A stretch of DNA of 64,000 bases from Planctomycetota bacterium. GTDB taxonomy: Bacteria; Planctomycetota; MHYJ01; WSZJ01. Under the pieces are notes generated by a model, which saw nothing but the letters and a program-made list of their open reading frames with translations, was not told the origin of the DNA and ran no database searches. Within the stretch, counting starts at the first letter, position 1; every line of letters begins with the position of its first letter. Shown here in pieces: positions 21,740 through 55,760 of the stretch. The stretch spans positions 48,506-112,505 of the forward strand of contig JBBTCT010000020.1 of NCBI GenBank assembly GCA_038060895.1, in the 5' to 3' direction. A program made the position numbers and the translations under genes.

Positions 21740-22312
21740 ATGCCCAAGCTCGCAACCCGCCGTGCCCCGAAGACCGCTCCCCGCGCCGCCAAGGCGAAGG
21801 CCAAAGCCGTGAAACCGATCCCGGACGGCTACCACACGATTACGCCGTCGCTCACAGTCCGCAACGCCGCGGGCGCCATCGAGTTCTTCAAGAAGGCCCT
21901 CGGCGCCGAGTTGCACGGCGAAGTCTGCGCCTGCGAGGACACCGGCAAGATCATGCACGCCGAGATGAAAGTCGGAACCTCGATCTTCTTCCTCGGGGAC
22001 GAAGCGCCGCAGATGGGCTGCGCGGCGACGCAGAGCTCGCTCTTCCTCTATGTGAAGGACGCCGACGCGTCGATCGAGCGCGCGGTGAAGGCGGGGGCGA
22101 CGCTGAAGTACCCCGCGAGCGACATGTTCTGGGGCGACCGGGTGGGCGGGGTGGCTGACCCGTTCGGGAACACGTGGACGTTCGCGACGCACAAGAAGGA
22201 CCTGACGGGGAAGCAAATCGAAGCGGCGAAGCAGGAGTTCGTGGCGGCGATGAAGGCGAAGGCGCAGGGCGGCTGCTGTGGCGGGTCGTCGGACTGCGGC
22301 TCGAAGCAGTAA
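21740..22312 (+). CDS. VOC/glyoxalase (PhnB-like) protein
   Basis: IPDGYHTITPSL, IMHAEMKVG, DMFWGDRVGGVADPFG; AAGGAG SD. Confidence 0.88.
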   Translation: MPKLATRRAPKTAPRAAKAKAKAVKPIPDGYHTITPSLTVRNAAGAIEFFKKALGAELHGEVCACEDTGKIMHAEMKVGTSIFFLGDEAPQMGCAATQSSLFLYVKDADASIERAVKAGATLKYPASDMFWGDRVGGVADPFGNTWTFATHKKDLTGKQIEAAKQEFVAAMKAKAQGGCCGGSSDCGSKQ

Positions 22313-22325
22313 GGAAGCCGAATCG

Positions 22326-22359
22326 CGGCGCGGCGGGGGTGACCCTGCCGCGCCGTTTT
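22326..22359 (+). terminator. Intrinsic terminator between convergent genes
   Basis: cggcgcggcggg stem pairing with cctgccgcgccg, followed by tttt. Confidence 0.65.
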
Positions 22360-23497
22360 ATCTCGCCGCCGGAACCACTCGCTCGAACACTCCCGTGATG
22401 TCGAACTCGCGGCCCCCCTGCGGGCTGGTGCGCGGGTACCGCCCCTCAAACGTTCCCTTGAGCCCCGCCACCTTGCCGCCGCGATACTCGACCACGACGC
22501 TCAGCTCGCCCGAGTAGGAAAACTCGCCGCCGCCGGAGTCTGTGAGCGTGACGTTGCCGTGCAGAAGCGCGAACTTCAACTCGCCTTTGACACCCGCGGG
22601 CTCCAGCAGGAGCTCGCCCTTCGCACCCGTGACGTCGTACACCTTCTTCGTGACCTGGTCCGTCCGCTCCATCACGCCGCCGGGGAACATCTTCGAGAGC
22701 CAGGGGAGAAACGCGGAAGCCTCCAGCTTCGCGGGCTTCGCCGGCACGGCCAGAAGCGCCCAGTCCTCCGTTTCCATCGGGACCACCTCGACGACGGGCG
22801 CGTAATACGCCGGCATTCCCTTGTCGTTGAGCCGCGTGAAGACGCGGATCGCGGAGTCGGTGCCCTCGGGGAGGCCGGGCAATTTCACCGGTCGCGGCTC
22901 CCCGGGCTCGCCCAGTCCCAGAGTCTTGCGCGCTTCGGCAAGGTTGTCGCGCCAGTGCCCCGCCAGCGCACCGCCCGTCAGCGGCTCCGGCCGGCCGCCG
23001 CTCTTTCGCGGCGTCATCGCGTCCCATTTCCGCACCAGCTTTCCCTGAGCGTCCAGCACGCACGCATCGACGTTCGACTGCTGCCCGCCGCCGGGGCCCG
23101 GCTTGAACTTCGCCGCCCACACCTCCTGCACCACCTCCGGGATGTCCTTGTCGTCCCGGTGCCCGTGCCACGACACCACCACGAACTCCTTCAGCATCGC
23201 GGCGACCGCCGCGTCGGCGAGGGCGAGCCCCCGCGCCTGCGTCGCCGTCGCTCAGCAGTGCCCTGTGATCATGTCGCCGTACTTCGCGTGGATCACGACG
23301 AGCAGGACGGGGCGCTTCTCCTTTGAAGCGCGCTTCTGCGCTTCCGCAAGATCGTCCGCCCAGTCGAGCCGGTACATCGCGAGGTCGTCGTCGCCGGGGC
23401 GGAGTTCGGTGAAGCGGGTGAGCGCCTTCTGGGCTTCGGCGTTCTGGGCCGCGGCGGGAAGGGAAATGAGCAGCGCGAGCGCGAGGGTGCGTTTCAT
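22358..23497 (-). CDS. Exported thioredoxin-like protein with in-frame UGA (candidate selenoprotein, 379 aa on readthrough)
   Basis: ORF 23497-23252 ends ...GDMITGHC-TGA; the same frame continues ATATQARGLALADAAVAAMLKEFVVVSW to 22358; hairpin after the UGA. Confidence 0.65.
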
Positions 23498-52616: not shown

Positions 52617-54791
52617 CTACTTCAGCCCGAACAGAACGACTCTGCCTCCGGTGTAGTCCACCAGGGCGCCCTTTCCGGTTTTCGGGTCGAGCGTGAAGCG
52701 CGACATCGAAACCCAGGTATTGGTGCACTTCAGGTACCACGTTTTCCCCGCGTCCGCGCCGTAGGGATGAGCGCTCTCGAGTACCTTCTCAACAGCGAGG
52801 TCCTTCAGGTTGATGCGGAAGAGCGCGAGTCGATCCGGCGTGCGCGCTGCGACCCAGGCGGCGCCGTGCGCTGAATCAACGGCGATGGCGTCGGGGGCGA
52901 AGTCGCCGGGAAGCGCCACGCGCTCGGACTTCTCGCCCAGGACGCGGTAAACAGCGCGGTCAGCGAGGTCCGCGAAGACGGCGGCGCCGGTGGCTGGGTC
53001 GAACGCGACGTCGCACGGGTTTTTCCCGAACGGGATCTTCGTCGCCGCGAAGGTCGTGAGATCGACCGAGCAGGCGCCCGCGTCGGGGCCGCTTCCGATC
53101 GCGACCCAGGCGCGGTTGCCGGCGGCGTCGATGGCGAGGGCGGTGGGGTCGTCGGGGAGCTTGTCGCCGAGCGGCTCTGCGCCCGGGGCGACGGAGACGA
53201 TCATTCCAGGGCCGGAGCGGAGGATGACGGCACCTTTGTCCCAGGTCGCGAAGTGTCGGTGCGACCAGCAGCGCGTGCCGGGTGCGCCGACCTTTCTCAA
53301 TGTTTTGTTTTCGAGTCCCGTTTCCGAAAGCTGCTCGTCGGCCCAGCCGAGCACCCACGCGCTGCCGCTTCCGGCGCCGACGGCGATCGGGCCGCGCGGG
53401 AGCGAGGGGCCGGCCGTGAATTTCCTGGAAGCGGGGTCAAGCCAGTAGAGCGTGTTGGGGAAAACCCACTCTCCGATCGCGACGAGGAGCTGCCCGGACT
53501 TGGGCTCGAGCGCGATCGCGCGCGGCATCATGATCGGCGTGGCAAGGTGAGTGACGGCCTTCGTCGCCGGGTCGAGCACCGCAAGGCGGTCGTCGTCCAT
53601 GGCGAGCCAGAGCTTGCCGTCGGCCCACGCCGCATCCATCGGCGCTGCGCCGGTGCGCAGGAACTTCGTCTTCGCATCCGCAACGGTGTGCACCGTGACG
53701 CCGCTTCCGCCCTGGTAGCCGGTGATTGCGATGACCCGGCCCAGCTCCTCGTCCACCGCGACGCCCTTGTAGAGGTGTCCCCCCGCGAATCCCTCGAAGC
53801 TCCCGGTCGCCACCCGCTTGCCGACGTGGACAGAGACGATCTTCGTGCTCCACGTCTGCACCCACAGGGTGTCGCGCTTCCGGTCGTAGCAGAGGCCGTT
53901 CGGCTTGCCGTCGGTCTTCACGTTCACGAACGCCGGCGGAGATTTCGAGAGGTCGATGATCGAGACGTCGCCGGTGTTGTCGTTGGCGGTGAACAGAACA
54001 TCGCCGCCCGGATGCAGGATCATGTGCTGGGCATCCATCGCACCCTTCACGGTGAACGGCTTGAAGTCGCCCTTCTCCGCCGGCGCGATCTGAAGGACGT
54101 TGTCGTGGCCCTTGAAGCCGTCGCCGAAGAGCGCGATGAGGCGGCCCGAGTTGATGTGGACGAGCAGCCCATTGAGGGCGTGACCGTCTTCCGGAATCGG
54201 GATCTCGCGGGTCGCCACGACGGCGCCGTCGGCGAGCTTGCGCGTATGCACCCGCGGCGGCTTCGTCTGTGCTTCCTCGACGTGGACCAGCCCGCGTTTC
54301 TTGTCGATCGCGATGCGCCGCAGGCCCTTGGCGCCTTCCACCGTGAAGAGCGACTTCACCGTCGCGTCGGGGCCGCCCCGGGCCCGCGCGGCGCCGGCGG
54401 CGGCCCCCACCCCCTCGGCCGACGGGTCGGCAACCATGTTCCACGAGTCGCCGACGGCGACAGACTTCCACGCCTCGGCCTTCGGCGGCGAAACAGAGAC
54501 GCTGCCCGCGTGCAGCACGTACACGGTCCCCGTTTCCGGATACACGACGATCGTGCGCCCCTGCGCGGGGATCGGGACGGTGCGAAGCTCGAGCGTCTTC
54601 GTGTCGAGCACGCCGAGCGCGGCGGTCTCTTTTCCGAGCAGGTACGCCAGGTGGCGCTTGCCGTCGGCCGCGGCCTCCGAAGGGTTGATTGCGTTTGCGT
54701 CGAGGCCCTTCGGGCGGAGAACGACTTCCGTGGCTTCCTCGGCGGAGGCGAGGAGAGCGGCGAGGACGAGGGCGAGGAAGGCGCGCGGCAT
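52617..54791 (-). CDS. Exported YncE/YVTN-like multi-blade beta-propeller protein
   Basis: Signal peptide; VSIIDL, KPNGL, PMDAA, PRAIAL, PTALAID and PCDVAFD blade repeats. Confidence 0.75.
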   Translation of the reverse strand: MPRAFLALVLAALLASAEEATEVVLRPKGLDANAINPSEAAADGKRHLAYLLGKETAALGVLDTKTLELRTVPIPAQGRTIVVYPETGTVYVLHAGSVSVSPPKAEAWKSVAVGDSWNMVADPSAEGVGAAAGAARARGGPDATVKSLFTVEGAKGLRRIAIDKKRGLVHVEEAQTKPPRVHTRKLADGAVVATREIPIPEDGHALNGLLVHINSGRLIALFGDGFKGHDNVLQIAPAEKGDFKPFTVKGAMDAQHMILHPGGDVLFTANDNTGDVSIIDLSKSPPAFVNVKTDGKPNGLCYDRKRDTLWVQTWSTKIVSVHVGKRVATGSFEGFAGGHLYKGVAVDEELGRVIAITGYQGGSGVTVHTVADAKTKFLRTGAAPMDAAWADGKLWLAMDDDRLAVLDPATKAVTHLATPIMMPRAIALEPKSGQLLVAIGEWVFPNTLYWLDPASRKFTAGPSLPRGPIAVGAGSGSAWVLGWADEQLSETGLENKTLRKVGAPGTRCWSHRHFATWDKGAVILRSGPGMIVSVAPGAEPLGDKLPDDPTALAIDAAGNRAWVAIGSGPDAGACSVDLTTFAATKIPFGKNPCDVAFDPATGAAVFADLADRAVYRVLGEKSERVALPGDFAPDAIAVDSAHGAAWVAARTPDRLALFRINLKDLAVEKVLESAHPYGADAGKTWYLKCTNTWVSMSRFTLDPKTGKGALVDYTGGRVVLFGLK

Positions 54792-54800
54792 CCCCGAAGT

Positions 54801-55760
54801 CTAACGGCGGAACACTTCCGTCAGCGCTTCAACCACGACTTCCCAGTCGAACTTCCGGATCCGCTCGAGGGCGGCGGCGGCGCGGGCGCGGGCTGCGGCG
54901 GGATCTTCGCGCGTTTTTCGAAGCGCGGCGACGAGCGCGGCGACGTCATCGACGGGTACAACAAGCGCGGTGGTCTCGTCGGCGAAATCGGTCGTGCCGA
55001 AGCGCGTGCAGATGACCGGGATGCCGCAGGCCATGGCCTCGGCGGTCGGGTTCGACCAGCCGGCGGTGCGCTCCATCGTGACGCTGACGTCGGACGCCTG
55101 GTAATAGCCGACGAGCTTCACCTGGTCGGTGCCGGAGACCTGCTCGATCCGCTTGCGCAGAAGGAAGTACCGGATCGGGAGCCGCGACGGGCGGTCGGCG
55201 ACGATCCGGACCCGCGCGTCTTTCCAGTTCAGCTTCTTGAACGCGGCGAGGACGAGGTCCACGGCCTCGAGCTTCTTGTCGAGCCGTCCGACGACGTTGA
55301 TCGTGAAGGGGCCCTCTCCGCGCGGTCCGGGCCGGAATTGCGCCGTATTCACGCCGCCGGGAATCGCAATCGCCTTGACTCCCGGGAGATACTCGTTCCA
55401 GCGGCCCGAATTCGCGACCGCGAGCGCGTCCGGGTGGCGCTCGAGGAACGCGCGATACTTCGAGGCGTACCGCTCGCCGATGATCATCACGATCCGCTTC
55501 TTGGCCGGCGCGGCCGCCATCGTCTCGAGCAGCCCGCAGTCGCCGCACATCACGACGTCGTGCGTGCGCTCCGATAGTTTTTCGAGCGGCAGCACCGGCA
55601 CGTCGCACTCGAGCCAGTCCGGCTTCTTCGTCTCCCGCATGTAGATCCGGAAGTCGTGCCCGCGTTTCTGAAAACGGTTCCCCAGCTCCACGAACCTCCG
55701 CACGCCGCCAGCGAGGCCCGCGTGGGGCAGGAGAGCGGCGATCGCCAGCTTCTCTTTCAC
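54801..55760 (-). CDS. Glycosyltransferase family 4
   Basis: GGV, IPGGVN..QF, YQASDV, EAMACGIPVI, FDW; GTG 55760. Confidence 0.88.
   Translation of the reverse strand: MKEKLAIAALLPHAGLAGGVRRFVELGNRFQKRGHDFRIYMRETKKPDWLECDVPVLPLEKLSERTHDVVMCGDCGLLETMAAAPAKKRIVMIIGERYASKYRAFLERHPDALAVANSGRWNEYLPGVKAIAIPGGVNTAQFRPGPRGEGPFTINVVGRLDKKLEAVDLVLAAFKKLNWKDARVRIVADRPSRLPIRYFLLRKRIEQVSGTDQVKLVGYYQASDVSVTMERTAGWSNPTAEAMACGIPVICTRFGTTDFADETTALVVPVDDVAALVAALRKTREDPAAARARAAAALERIRKFDWEVVVEALTEVFRR

Follow-up and report, generated by a model that had tools for sequence, protein, structure and literature searches.

Two adjacent "hypothetical" open reading frames (ORFs) on the minus strand of a 64,000-nucleotide stretch of planctomycetotal DNA (the window) are almost certainly a single gene, which encodes an exported redox protein of thioredoxin-like type with selenocysteine (Sec) as its key residue. 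The whole candidate gene (positions 22358..23497, minus strand) comprises 379 codons, with the UGA at codon 82 counted as Sec, plus a TAA stop, and full-length homologues in the same frame support this extent. Specifically, it is highly probable that the product is one exported selenoprotein of 379 residues, that UGA82 is decoded as Sec through SelB and a downstream hairpin, and that the N-terminal half is a derived domain of the Thioredoxin_7 type.

The gene starts with an ATG at 23497, and its first 81 residues, which end in ...GDMITGHC, run up to the codon pair TGC (Cys81, 23257-23255) and TGA (codon 82, 23254-23252). Beyond UGA82 the frame stays open for 297 further codons, to the TAA at 22360-22358. 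The preliminary description had reported an 81-residue signal-peptide ORF stopping at TGC-TGA, a stop-free continuation of about 297 codons and no obvious SD for the downstream part, and had predicted that pipelines would split the gene in two, all of which was borne out. A table-11 ORF listing cuts the gene as foreseen, into one ORF ending at 23252 and one of 279 residues from an ATG at 23197; the 15 nucleotides upstream of that ATG (GCGGCGGUCGCCGCG) are without an AGGAG-like site, and the databases hold halves only. A contig from an independent DNA run (X3) spans 23084-23412 with 0 differences, so UGA82 is not an assembly error. An open frame by itself is unremarkable in DNA of 66-69% GC; what lifts the locus above chance is the stability, within the gene, of the 36-nucleotide window after the UGA together with conservation among homologues. 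At its N terminus the protein carries a predicted Sec-type signal peptide (MKRTLALALLISLPAAA, 23447..23497, minus strand), read from the sequence as a basic n-region, a hydrophobic core and an A-x-A end, a layout that the homologues in the family alignment (A1) share. Cleavage is likely before Q18, the boundary being approximate, and the AF2 model has pLDDT below 50 over residues 1-13 of this region.

The in-frame UGA is conserved wherever the family was found. TGA occupies the same column in all 16 extracted homologues, which range from 83% down to about 30% identity, in 22 of 22 matches from 18 of 401 Planctomycetota genomes, and in 56 of 56 loci with the N-terminal part present (Planctomycetota, Verrucomicrobiota, and Kiritimatiellia). 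The regular expression used for the 56 loci also permitted C, W, R, or G at this column, and one of the two search patterns was the Cys form. The preliminary description had held that Trp, Arg, or Gly codons here would speak against the candidate, and none was found in any of these sets; it had also looked for a conserved UGA or Cys, of which the UGA was present throughout and the Cys form nowhere, whether among the database matches, the 401 genomes of the phylum, the best 150 of 263 matches to representative proteins, or the 56 loci. Because no Cys-containing homologue was found, the Sec/Cys pairing test cannot be applied. The vicinal C-U motif that had been proposed is read as G-H-C-U in 15 of the 16 extracted homologues, the exception being a sixth-frame-shifted copy (G015) that reads H-A-U, and the H-C-U center itself (His80-Cys81-Sec82, CAC-TGC-TGA, 23252..23260, minus strand), placed by hhalign as described below, appears as H-C-TGA in all 56 loci. 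In A1, G79, H80, C81, U82, R89, and L93 are invariant and A83, A85, and G90 occur in at least 90% of rows. Thus, as in selenoproteins of the SelB/SECIS type, the UGA sits in one column with protein conservation on both of its sides. A scan of the genome for other H-C-U sites in a sensible protein context returned none besides this gene.

These data bear directly on the simplest alternative, in which the UGA is a true stop between two genes, one for an exported 81-residue peptide and one for a 279-residue protein initiated at ATG 23197 or a nearby GTG. Standard ORF calling indeed gives exactly two ORFs, and the database entries are all halves: 15 of 15 database matches are C-terminal pieces of 262-284 residues, and among the best 150 of 263 matches in 1.84 billion representative proteins the listed best stretches end at profile positions 80-81 or begin at position 86 or later, with 0 crossing the UGA column. 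RNA-library contigs from a single aquifer sample cover portions of each half, DNA carry-over being possible, and none of them cleanly spans UGA82. However, the stretch of 18 codons that separates the UGA from ATG 23197 shows conservation at the protein level (A83, A85, R89, G90, and L93) and makes up helix 1 of the thioredoxin fold, the junction being modeled at pLDDT 88-94. In all 56 loci the halves are adjacent and in the same frame, with exactly one TGA between them, whereas the downstream "start" wanders among gene calls from profile position 86 to 108, and the 81-residue piece would stop one residue short of the active-site position of its own fold. We regard a two-gene arrangement as very improbable.

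The machinery for reading UGA as Sec, which the preliminary description had proposed to look for as selA, selB, selD, and selC, is complete in this genome. Profile searches returned selA (541 bits), selB (310.7 bits plus 35.2 bits in the same frame), and selD (364 bits, itself with one in-frame TGA), all over their curated cut-offs, and a tRNA-Sec (71.7 bits) that ARAGORN also calls as tRNA-SeC with anticodon tca. In the phylum sample, selA is present in 18 of 18 genomes that bear the gene versus 288 of 401 overall. UGA also retains its meaning as a stop: TGA terminates 1250 of the 2308 open frames that span 500 codons or more, making it the commonest terminator in the genome, and a second TGA is the terminal stop in four homologues. 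Both points weigh against read-through without Sec, whether by a near-cognate tRNA inserting Trp, Cys, or Arg or through a lineage-wide change in the meaning of UGA. Sequence does not distinguish which residue is inserted, and hairpins after a stop can also stimulate plain read-through. It fits poorly, however, with the full Sec machinery here and selA in every carrier genome sampled, with a UGA that falls on the nucleophile of a CxxC-type site, as it also does in 18 paralogous Thioredoxin_7 domains, and with the finding that 0 of at least 56 orthologues use a direct Cys or Trp codon, which some of them would be expected to do; we therefore give it hardly any weight. Judged from these comparisons, UGA82 almost certainly encodes selenocysteine.

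A SECIS-like hairpin (GGCGCGGGGGCUCGCCCUCGCC, 23216..23237, minus strand, corresponding to UGA+15..+36) follows the UGA within the coding sequence and was delineated from the minimum free energy (MFE), window percentile, and consensus pairs. It can be drawn in two near-equivalent registers, GCGGGGG-CUCG-CCCUCGC (UGA+18..+35, part of the 63-nucleotide MFE structure) and GGCG.GGG-GGCUCG-CCC.CGCC (26-nucleotide MFE). The letters (UGA+6..+36) and the place of the hairpin first described were correct; the pairing register drawn for it was not the one retained, the relatives conserving a slightly different one. Against dinucleotide shuffles the folding energy is not significant (z -0.13 for 71 nucleotides and z -1.27 for 26 nucleotides). 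Within its own gene, the 36-nucleotide window that follows the UGA exceeds 98.5% of the remaining in-frame windows in stability. The corresponding windows of 24 distinct sequences have a median percentile of 0.066, and 16 of them rank among the most stable 10% of their genes. A hairpin lies within 14-36 nucleotides downstream of the UGA in all lineages, with a register that depends on lineage (+14..+28 in a large marine group versus +18..+35 in the window gene) and an apical loop that is G-rich or contains GU in most of them (GUG, GGG, GGUC, AGUU, and GGCUCG); in some lineages the loop is without G (L031 and L058).

Synonymous codon use among 63 distinct sequences shows a trough over the stem. 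Codon Q+5 is CAG in 54 of 54 cases, and the entropies at V+6, G+8, and T+9 are 0.74, 0.61, and 0.21 bit, compared with 1.8 bits at the loop codon R+7 and 1.3-1.95 bits at ten flanking four-fold codons. Covariation is weak: 82.6% of cells are paired versus 79.4% in shuffles, a value that 18 of 500 shuffles reach, and a double change occurs in only one hairpin pair (AU:9, CG:7) and probably stems from a single event. Moreover, the G-run and C-run pair in several registers, slid registers still giving 58-75% paired cells, and RNAalifold on 23 sequences keeps only 4 hairpin pairs with an essentially nil covariation term. An Rfam scan of 23100-23320 matched no model, the only hit being a chance IRES match at E 2.8. 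The synonymous trough, the local stability, and the presence of the hairpin in all lineages together indicate that selection at the RNA level acts on a stem-loop shortly 3′ of the UGA. SECIS elements of the Escherichia coli fdhF type are hairpins within the coding sequence, about a dozen nucleotides past the UGA, that act in a SelB-dependent manner. The present hairpin resembles them in its place, inside the coding region and roughly a dozen nucleotides past the UGA, and in a loop that is G-rich or contains GU in most lineages, but its sequence and stem register differ from those of fdhF and vary among the lineages of its own family, and SelB binding is putative.

Residues ~35-196 (22910..23395, minus strand) make up a thioredoxin-fold domain of a divergent Thioredoxin_7/DsbH type, as indicated by AF2, VIA-align, Foldseek, and hhalign. 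The AF2 model of the selenoprotein has a pLDDT of 87.2 and a pTM of 0.85, and VIA-align matches the domain to DsbH (2ju5, Z 11.3, rmsd 6.1, 136 aligned), to 3f9u (Z 11.3, rmsd 3.2, 125 aligned; Foldseek E 6.6e-4), and to DsbD-gamma (1vrs_D, Z 10.2). An hhalign comparison with 20 of the 23 Thioredoxin_7 matches of the same genome gives 97.7% and E 2.4e-12, placing U82 on the first Cys/Sec of CxxC, Ala85 on the second, and Val143 on the cis-Pro column; the Cys at -1 and the His at -2 relative to Sec82 are invariant, as is Asn142 before Val143. Assignment to Thioredoxin_7 is thus supported by fold and by profile-level homology, while the PF13899 score of 13.4 bits, to which only residues 45-73 of the lead-in contribute, stays below the gathering threshold of 27 (four relatives score 12-14 bits or nothing), and by the hhalign alignment the C-x-x-C/U-x-x-C site and the cis-Pro loop of that family are absent. 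On these alignments the N-terminal half adopts a divergent fold of the Thioredoxin_7 type, with Sec at the position of the nucleophilic Cys, the resolving Cys shifted to -1, and the cis-Pro lost. The remainder of the protein is a Pro-rich linker and C-terminal β-barrel (residues 197-379, 22361..22909, minus strand), modeled alone by AF2 at pLDDT 95.0. Its best VIA-align matches (Z 8.0), to a designed barrel, small OMPs, Rv2717c, avidin, and YceI, lie within the stated background of the tool, and therefore no fold family was assigned to it; Foldseek returned nothing at E<=0.001 for this domain and the Pfam scan no family.

Compared with Thioredoxin_7, DsbH, and DsbD-gamma proteins (PF13899 and PF03190), with which it shares its fold, export, and the lead-in W..A...A..E.RPV, the window protein has a 9-residue insertion ahead of the active site, C-U-x-x-A in place of C/U-x-x-C, Val in the cis-Pro column, and a fused β-barrel of 180 residues. 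Thioredoxin-fold selenoproteins and their SelB/SECIS decoding are well known. Those with UxxC or CxxU centers (for example the thiol:disulfide interchange protein PF13098 and NF041199) likewise have an active-site Sec, a UGA with a downstream hairpin and a split annotation; in the window protein, however, the partner Cys is vicinal (-1) rather than three residues off, and neither an NCBIfam match (E<=1) to the Trx7/PDZ selenoprotein NF041199 (CxxU) nor a PDZ domain (Pfam) was found. Adjacent Cys and Sec residues also occur in animal thioredoxin reductase, whose C-terminal Gly-Cys-Sec-Gly can close to an eight-membered selenenylsulfide ring and reopen as a selenolate nucleophile. There the pair is carried on the flexible C-tail of an animal flavoenzyme, whereas here it caps the N terminus of helix 1 inside a thioredoxin fold, directly after an invariant His, and the protein is bacterial and exported.

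The family is absent from every library and list checked, and its members are mis-annotated as two hypothetical proteins. Neither Pfam nor NCBIfam yielded a family over threshold when the window protein, four relatives, and a C-T-U paralogue were scanned, in keeping with the earlier suggestion of an unannotated family, and in NCBIfam the window protein and three relatives had no match at E<=1. A search of PDB sequences with an HMM of the family found nothing below E 0.24, the 2026 catalogue has no entry that fits the family, and a literature search found no paper describing it. No conserved neighbor indicates a pathway, the 1.5-kb flanks of 21 loci having in common only the gene itself and antisense shadow frames. 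PVC genomes are rich in sulfatases, and the sulfatase found nearby in 15 of 56 loci (3-kb flanks) was for this reason not counted as a partner.

What the H-C-U center does is a separate question. One possibility is that the protein is a selenoprotein whose His-Cys-Sec is a ligand set for metals or metalloids (Cu, Hg, As, Se/Te), used in periplasmic binding or detoxification with the barrel as carrier. Three such consecutive residues would make a good soft-metal site, the cis-Pro loop for protein substrates is lost, and several families with a CU dipeptide are tied to metal or organometal chemistry. Table 1 of a 2026 review (PMC13188914) lists SaoL, HgcA, SaoC, SaoB, MbdU, KCU-star, and CopZ form 2 as CU-dipeptide selenoproteins, and there and in the Haft preprint SaoL, HgcA, SaoC, MbdU, and CopZ form 2 are linked to metals or organometals. 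These families have the same vicinal C-U and the same typical truncation of database entries at the C-U site, but they belong to unrelated folds and none is listed in that table as a thioredoxin fold. The window protein and three relatives match none of SaoL (NF040728), HgcA (NF040863), SaoC (NF040734), MbdU (NF045648), and KCU-star (NF033934) at E<=1, no metal-handling neighbor is conserved in the sets of 21 and 56 loci, and, just as redox enzymes do, the thioredoxin-fold scaffold has Sec in the position of the nucleophile. A metal-binding role is accordingly judged unlikely.

A second possibility is a peroxidase of the GPx type, in which a (lipid) hydroperoxide would oxidize Sec82, Asn142 and Trp110 would activate it, Cys81 would resolve it, and the barrel would bind lipid. 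W110, after strand 2, and N142, just before strand 3, are invariant and occupy what we take, from topology, to be the places of the Gln/Trp/Asn partners of GPx; cis-Pro is absent, and Foldseek finds GPx structures (3cmi, E 4.4e-3; 6vpd, E 5.3e-3). These structures nevertheless rank below the DsbH/DsbD-type matches in both Foldseek and VIA-align, and Pfam GSHPx (PF00255) is not matched. This assignment, too, has low probability in our estimation.

In the reading that we favor for the gene as a whole, the signal peptide would export the selenoprotein, SelB with Sec-tRNA(UCA) would read UGA82 as selenocysteine, and the hairpin starting 15-18 nucleotides past the UGA would direct recoding like a bacterial SECIS. 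Sec82 lies at the N terminus of helix 1, where CxxC proteins have their attacking Cys, and would be the nucleophile; Cys81 would resolve it to a vicinal selenenylsulfide, comparable with the GCUG center of animal thioredoxin reductase, and the fused barrel would hold a substrate or partner. Because the cis-Pro loop, which binds protein substrates, is lost, the alignment suggests that the substrate is a small molecule rather than a protein disulfide. The data show a single gene, its conserved UGA, the Sec machinery, the fold, and where Sec is placed; the Se-S ring, the small-molecule substrate, and the barrel as a binding module are inferred from alignment and modeled topology. A fuller version of this picture, which we offer tentatively, is an obligate-Sec enzyme family of the PVC group with a reinvented thioredoxin active site, in which a vicinal Cys-Sec selenenylsulfide, aided by the invariant His, replaces CxxC, the cis-Pro loop is gone, and the new barrel delivers a substrate that is small and either hydrophobic or inorganic.

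Two traits of the family are unusual: its thioredoxin fold carries a Cys-Sec dipeptide where the nucleophile belongs, and Cys-form relatives are wholly lacking among the homologues found. Many selenoprotein families are homologous to thiol-based oxidoreductases (section 7 of PMC13188914); relative to the families described there, the present one is distinguished by the lack of such relatives among the homologues found. Families in which Sec is never exchanged for Cys can tell most about what selenium does beyond sulfur, and this protein, predicted to be small, soluble, and easy to express, may serve as a test case. If the family were added to annotation libraries, hundreds of calls across Planctomycetota, Verrucomicrobiota, and Kiritimatiellia would be corrected. 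Furthermore, TGA stands at the first Cys of CxxC in 18 of the 23 Thioredoxin_7 matches of this genome, and these 18 further domains with an active-site UGA point to a large, mostly unannotated exported selenoproteome in the lineage. If the reinvented active site is real, the substrate would be periplasmic, for example a lipid hydroperoxide or a chalcogen or metal species, and the chemistry would be one beyond the reach of sulfur, given that a Cys version apparently exists nowhere. The family would then be one branch of a Thioredoxin_7-based selenoproteome of at least 20 genes per genome, and these groundwater Planctomycetota would be among the most selenoprotein-rich free-living bacteria.

The gene runs on the minus strand from an ATG at 23497 to a TAA at 22360-22358, and its first 81 codons read MKRTLALALLISLPAAAQ...DWADDLAEAQKRASKEKRPVLLVVIHAKYGDMITGHC. 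An in-frame TGA (23254-23252) directly follows codon 81, and 297 further codons lead to the TAA. The preliminary description had anticipated that annotation would split such a gene in two, and this is what translation table 11 yields: one ORF ending at 23252 and one of 279 aa from an ATG at 23197. The window DNA is 66-69% GC, and the table-11 listing holds many shadow ORFs. Because such a composition readily yields long open frames and stable hairpins, the window's sequence alone proves little, and it is comparison with relatives that decides the question. A contig from an independent DNA data set spans 23084-23412 with 0 differences, which rules out an assembly error as the source of the TGA. 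Judged by the comparisons that follow, the gene is almost certainly a real, mis-split selenoprotein gene.

All full-length matches in 41 genomes read through one TGA. At the column where the preliminary description had placed selenocysteine, TGA was found throughout: in 16/16 extracted homologues, from 83% down to ~30% identity, in 22/22 matches from a phylum sample in which 18/401 genomes carry the family (E<=1e-10), and, as H-C-TGA, in the 56/56 loci having the N-terminal part in a search of 185,579 species, each represented by one genome. The last search gave 57 loci, the 57th consisting of the C-terminal part alone, from Planctomycetota, Verrucomicrobiota (including Roseibacillus, Akkermansiaceae, Limisphaerales, Pedosphaera and others) and Kiritimatiellia; its search expression also admitted C, W, R or G in place of the TGA. 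The species-wide search, in which one of two back-translated patterns was written for a Cys form, returned no Cys-form relative. The site reads G-H-C-U in 15/16 extracted homologues and H-A-U, with Ala before the TGA, in the 16th (locus L030, G015:C29), whose N-terminal part has been shifted out of the reading frame of the remainder by a break upstream of H-A-U; this copy is either an assembly error or decaying. In an alignment of 13 family sequences (A1), G79, H80, C81, U82, R89 and L93 are invariant, and A83, A85 and G90 occur in >=90% of rows, so the protein is conserved right across the apparent stop. Protein databases carry the mark of the split: 15/15 matches are C-terminal pieces of 262-284 aa, labeled "hypothetical protein" where named. 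The family profile matched 263 proteins among 1.84 billion cluster representatives, and in the best 150 of these 263 the best stretches end at profile position 80-81 or start at >=86, the one exception in kind being a 4728-aa repetitive protein matched at positions 291-325 only.

The decoding machinery that the preliminary description presupposed is present in the window's genome (47 contigs, 86.5% complete), with selA, selB, selD and tRNA-Sec all found. Profile searches gave selA at 541 bits, selB at 310.7 bits, plus a C-terminal piece (35.2 bits) in the same frame, selD at 364 bits, and tRNA-Sec at 71.7 bits; ARAGORN calls the last tRNA-SeC with anticodon tca. The tRNA gene (G000:C4:13533-13624, plus strand; G000 being the window's genome) lies ~300 bp from a TGA-bearing Thioredoxin_7 gene (G000:C4:12960-13217, minus), and selA (G000:C4:24942-26297, minus) is 11 kb beyond it on the same contig. 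Since selD (G000:C2:48628-49548, minus) has one in-frame TGA, the selenophosphate synthetase is probably a selenoprotein too. Elsewhere in the genome TGA is an ordinary stop: it terminates 1250/2308 open frames of >=500 codons, a rough proxy in which shadow frames are also counted, and a second TGA is the terminator in four homologues of the gene. All carrier genomes in the phylum sample have selA (18/18, vs 288/401 overall), an association that is only supportive because of the relatedness among these genomes.

The letters of the hairpin that had been proposed just 3' of the UGA are all present in the window, where both folding registers fall within 23237-23216 (minus). Folding of the 63 nt that follow the UGA gives GCGGGGG-CUCG-CCCUCGC at UGA+18..+35 (nt downstream of the UGA), and a 26-nt cut favors the adjacent register GGCG.GGG-GGCUCG-CCC.CGCC; in the window, the folding energy is unremarkable (z -0.13 over 71 nt and -1.27 over 26 nt). 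A hairpin occupies this place in every homologue, not always in the same columns: GAGGGGG-AGUU-CCCUCUC types lie at about +18..+35 in relatives, and a large, mostly marine group has AGGUCC-GNG-GGACCU at +14..+28. Three tests bear on selection. First, a 36-nt window starting 10 nt past the UGA, set against other windows of its own gene, is stabler than the gene's mean in 23/24 distinct sequences and among the top 10% in 16/24 (median percentile 0.066; 0.015 for the window's gene). Second, across 23 sequences 82.6% of cells are paired, vs 79.4% in shuffles (18/500 reach the observed value) and 58-75% in slid registers; G-runs pair with C-runs in several registers, so this evidence is weak, as is the covariation support, in which one stem pair alternates A-U (9) and C-G (7). 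Third, and most telling, is synonymous variation over 63 distinct sequences. It is low in the stem codons, numbered from the UGA (Gln+5, CAG in 54/54; Val+6, 0.74 bit; Gly+8, 0.61 bit, GGG in 55/62; Thr+9, 0.21 bit, ACC in 30/31), and stands at 1.8 bits in the loop codon Arg+7, 1.3-1.95 bits in ten flanking four-fold codons, and 0.84 and 0.89 bit at Gln+19 and Gln+21. Amino-acid changes in the 3' arm (ACC to GCC, AUC or ACU) retain pairing through wobble. The low variation and preserved pairing provide good evidence of selection on the stem at the RNA level, as a putative bacterial SECIS requires. Rfam holds no model matching the hairpin. A second small hairpin, GCGGC-GGUC-GCCGC (23199-23212, minus; UGA+40..+53), recurs as CGAC-GGUC-GUCG in several lineages and lies farther from the UGA than the usual bacterial SECIS apex.

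An AlphaFold model of the whole protein, built with A1 (pLDDT 87.2, pTM 0.85), is continuous in confidence over the UGA junction, the blocks of residues 71-100 scoring 81, 88 and 94. By inspection of A1, the N-terminus of all members resembles a Sec-type signal peptide. Residues ~35-196 adopt a predicted thioredoxin fold, for which VIA-align returned DsbH (2ju5, Z 11.3), a Bacteroides protein (3f9u, Z 11.3), Thermus thioredoxin (2lst, Z 10.8), AGR3 (3ph9, Z 10.7) and DsbD-gamma (1vrs, Z 10.2), and Foldseek gave 3f9u at E 6.6e-4. Pfam Thioredoxin_7 matches the lead-in alone, below cut-off (13.4 bits vs 27). A profile-profile comparison of the family N-domain with 20 Thioredoxin_7 domains of the same genome scored 97.7% (E 2.4e-12): U82 falls on the first Cys/Sec of CxxC, Ala85 on the resolving Cys, Cys81 on the residue preceding the motif, and Val143, just after the invariant Asn142, on the cis-Pro column, and the family carries nine extra residues ahead of the site. 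The genome has 23 Thioredoxin_7 matches (for example G000:C39:13203-13448, C1:199050-199295 and C9:127495-127674); in 18, the first Cys of CxxC is replaced by an in-frame TGA, with motifs such as W-U-G-G-C and, in two, U-V-P-U-x-S-C. Together with selD and two other genes, the TGA-bearing matches suggest a total of >20 selenoproteins in the genome, most of them exported and thioredoxin-like. A second unannotated candidate selenoprotein, of 410 residues (G000:C2, minus, about 55702..54473; L060:474-1703), has a signal peptide, the same lead-in and a TGA again at codon 82, in the motif A-C-T-U-N-N-G, with a different C-terminal part; it matched no Pfam or NCBIfam family.

The C-terminal half (residues 197-379), modeled alone with 56 sequences (pLDDT 95.0), is predicted to be an up-and-down β-barrel with two short helices. 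Its best VIA-align matches include a designed barrel (Z 8.0), small outer-membrane barrels, Rv2717c, avidins and YceI, and Foldseek found no match at E<=0.001, so the domain is placed in no family. By inspection only, charged strands and a non-aromatic C-terminus argue for a soluble rather than a membrane barrel. In the window, the convergent neighbor (21740-22312, plus) encodes a glyoxalase/VOC-family protein whose tail, GGCCGGSSDCGSKQ, is unusual and Cys-rich; the neighbor on the other side is divergent and has no assigned family. Comparison of flanks revealed no neighbor conserved across the family loci. A sulfatase gene (PF00884) lies <=3 kb away on the same strand in 15/56 loci from three phyla (L088, L091, L092, L095, L099-L101, L103, L105, L113-L116, L123, L125), which may be chance, sulfatases being common in these phyla.

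Collectively, these analyses show a single gene with a conserved UGA, accompanied by a complete Sec system, and a hairpin under selection, and the models place Sec in the nucleophile position of the exported protein's thioredoxin fold. The predicted helix begins at residue 83, so Sec82 would cap it like the attacking Cys of thioredoxins. Cys81 would resolve Sec82, giving a vicinal selenenylsulfide like that of the GCUG center of animal thioredoxin reductase, and His80 may assist. In Trx/Dsb proteins the cis-Pro loop holds the substrate polypeptide; its loss here, with the addition of a barrel, makes a small molecule a more likely substrate than a protein disulfide. A peroxidase-like enzyme and a metal-binding version of the protein stand as rival readings, both of low probability. 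In broad terms, the function would lie in exported redox or chalcogen chemistry.

Among the 119 selenoprotein families and subfamilies in Table 1 of a 2026 review (PMC13188914), no thioredoxin-fold family has a CU or GHCU motif. A CU motif is given there for CopZ form 2, SaoL, HgcA, SaoC, SaoB, MbdU and KCU-star, and the entry closest by domain is "Trx7/PDZ" (NF041199), whose motif is CxxU. The window protein and three relatives had no match at E<=1 in NCBIfam release 20.0. We did not find the family described in the literature, although it may stand under another name in supplementary family sequence lists. Thioredoxin-fold selenoproteins are a known kind, and what is new is this uncatalogued, PVC-wide family, whose vicinal Cys-Sec pair lies within a thioredoxin fold, for which the searches returned no Cys form, and whose C-terminal barrel is new.
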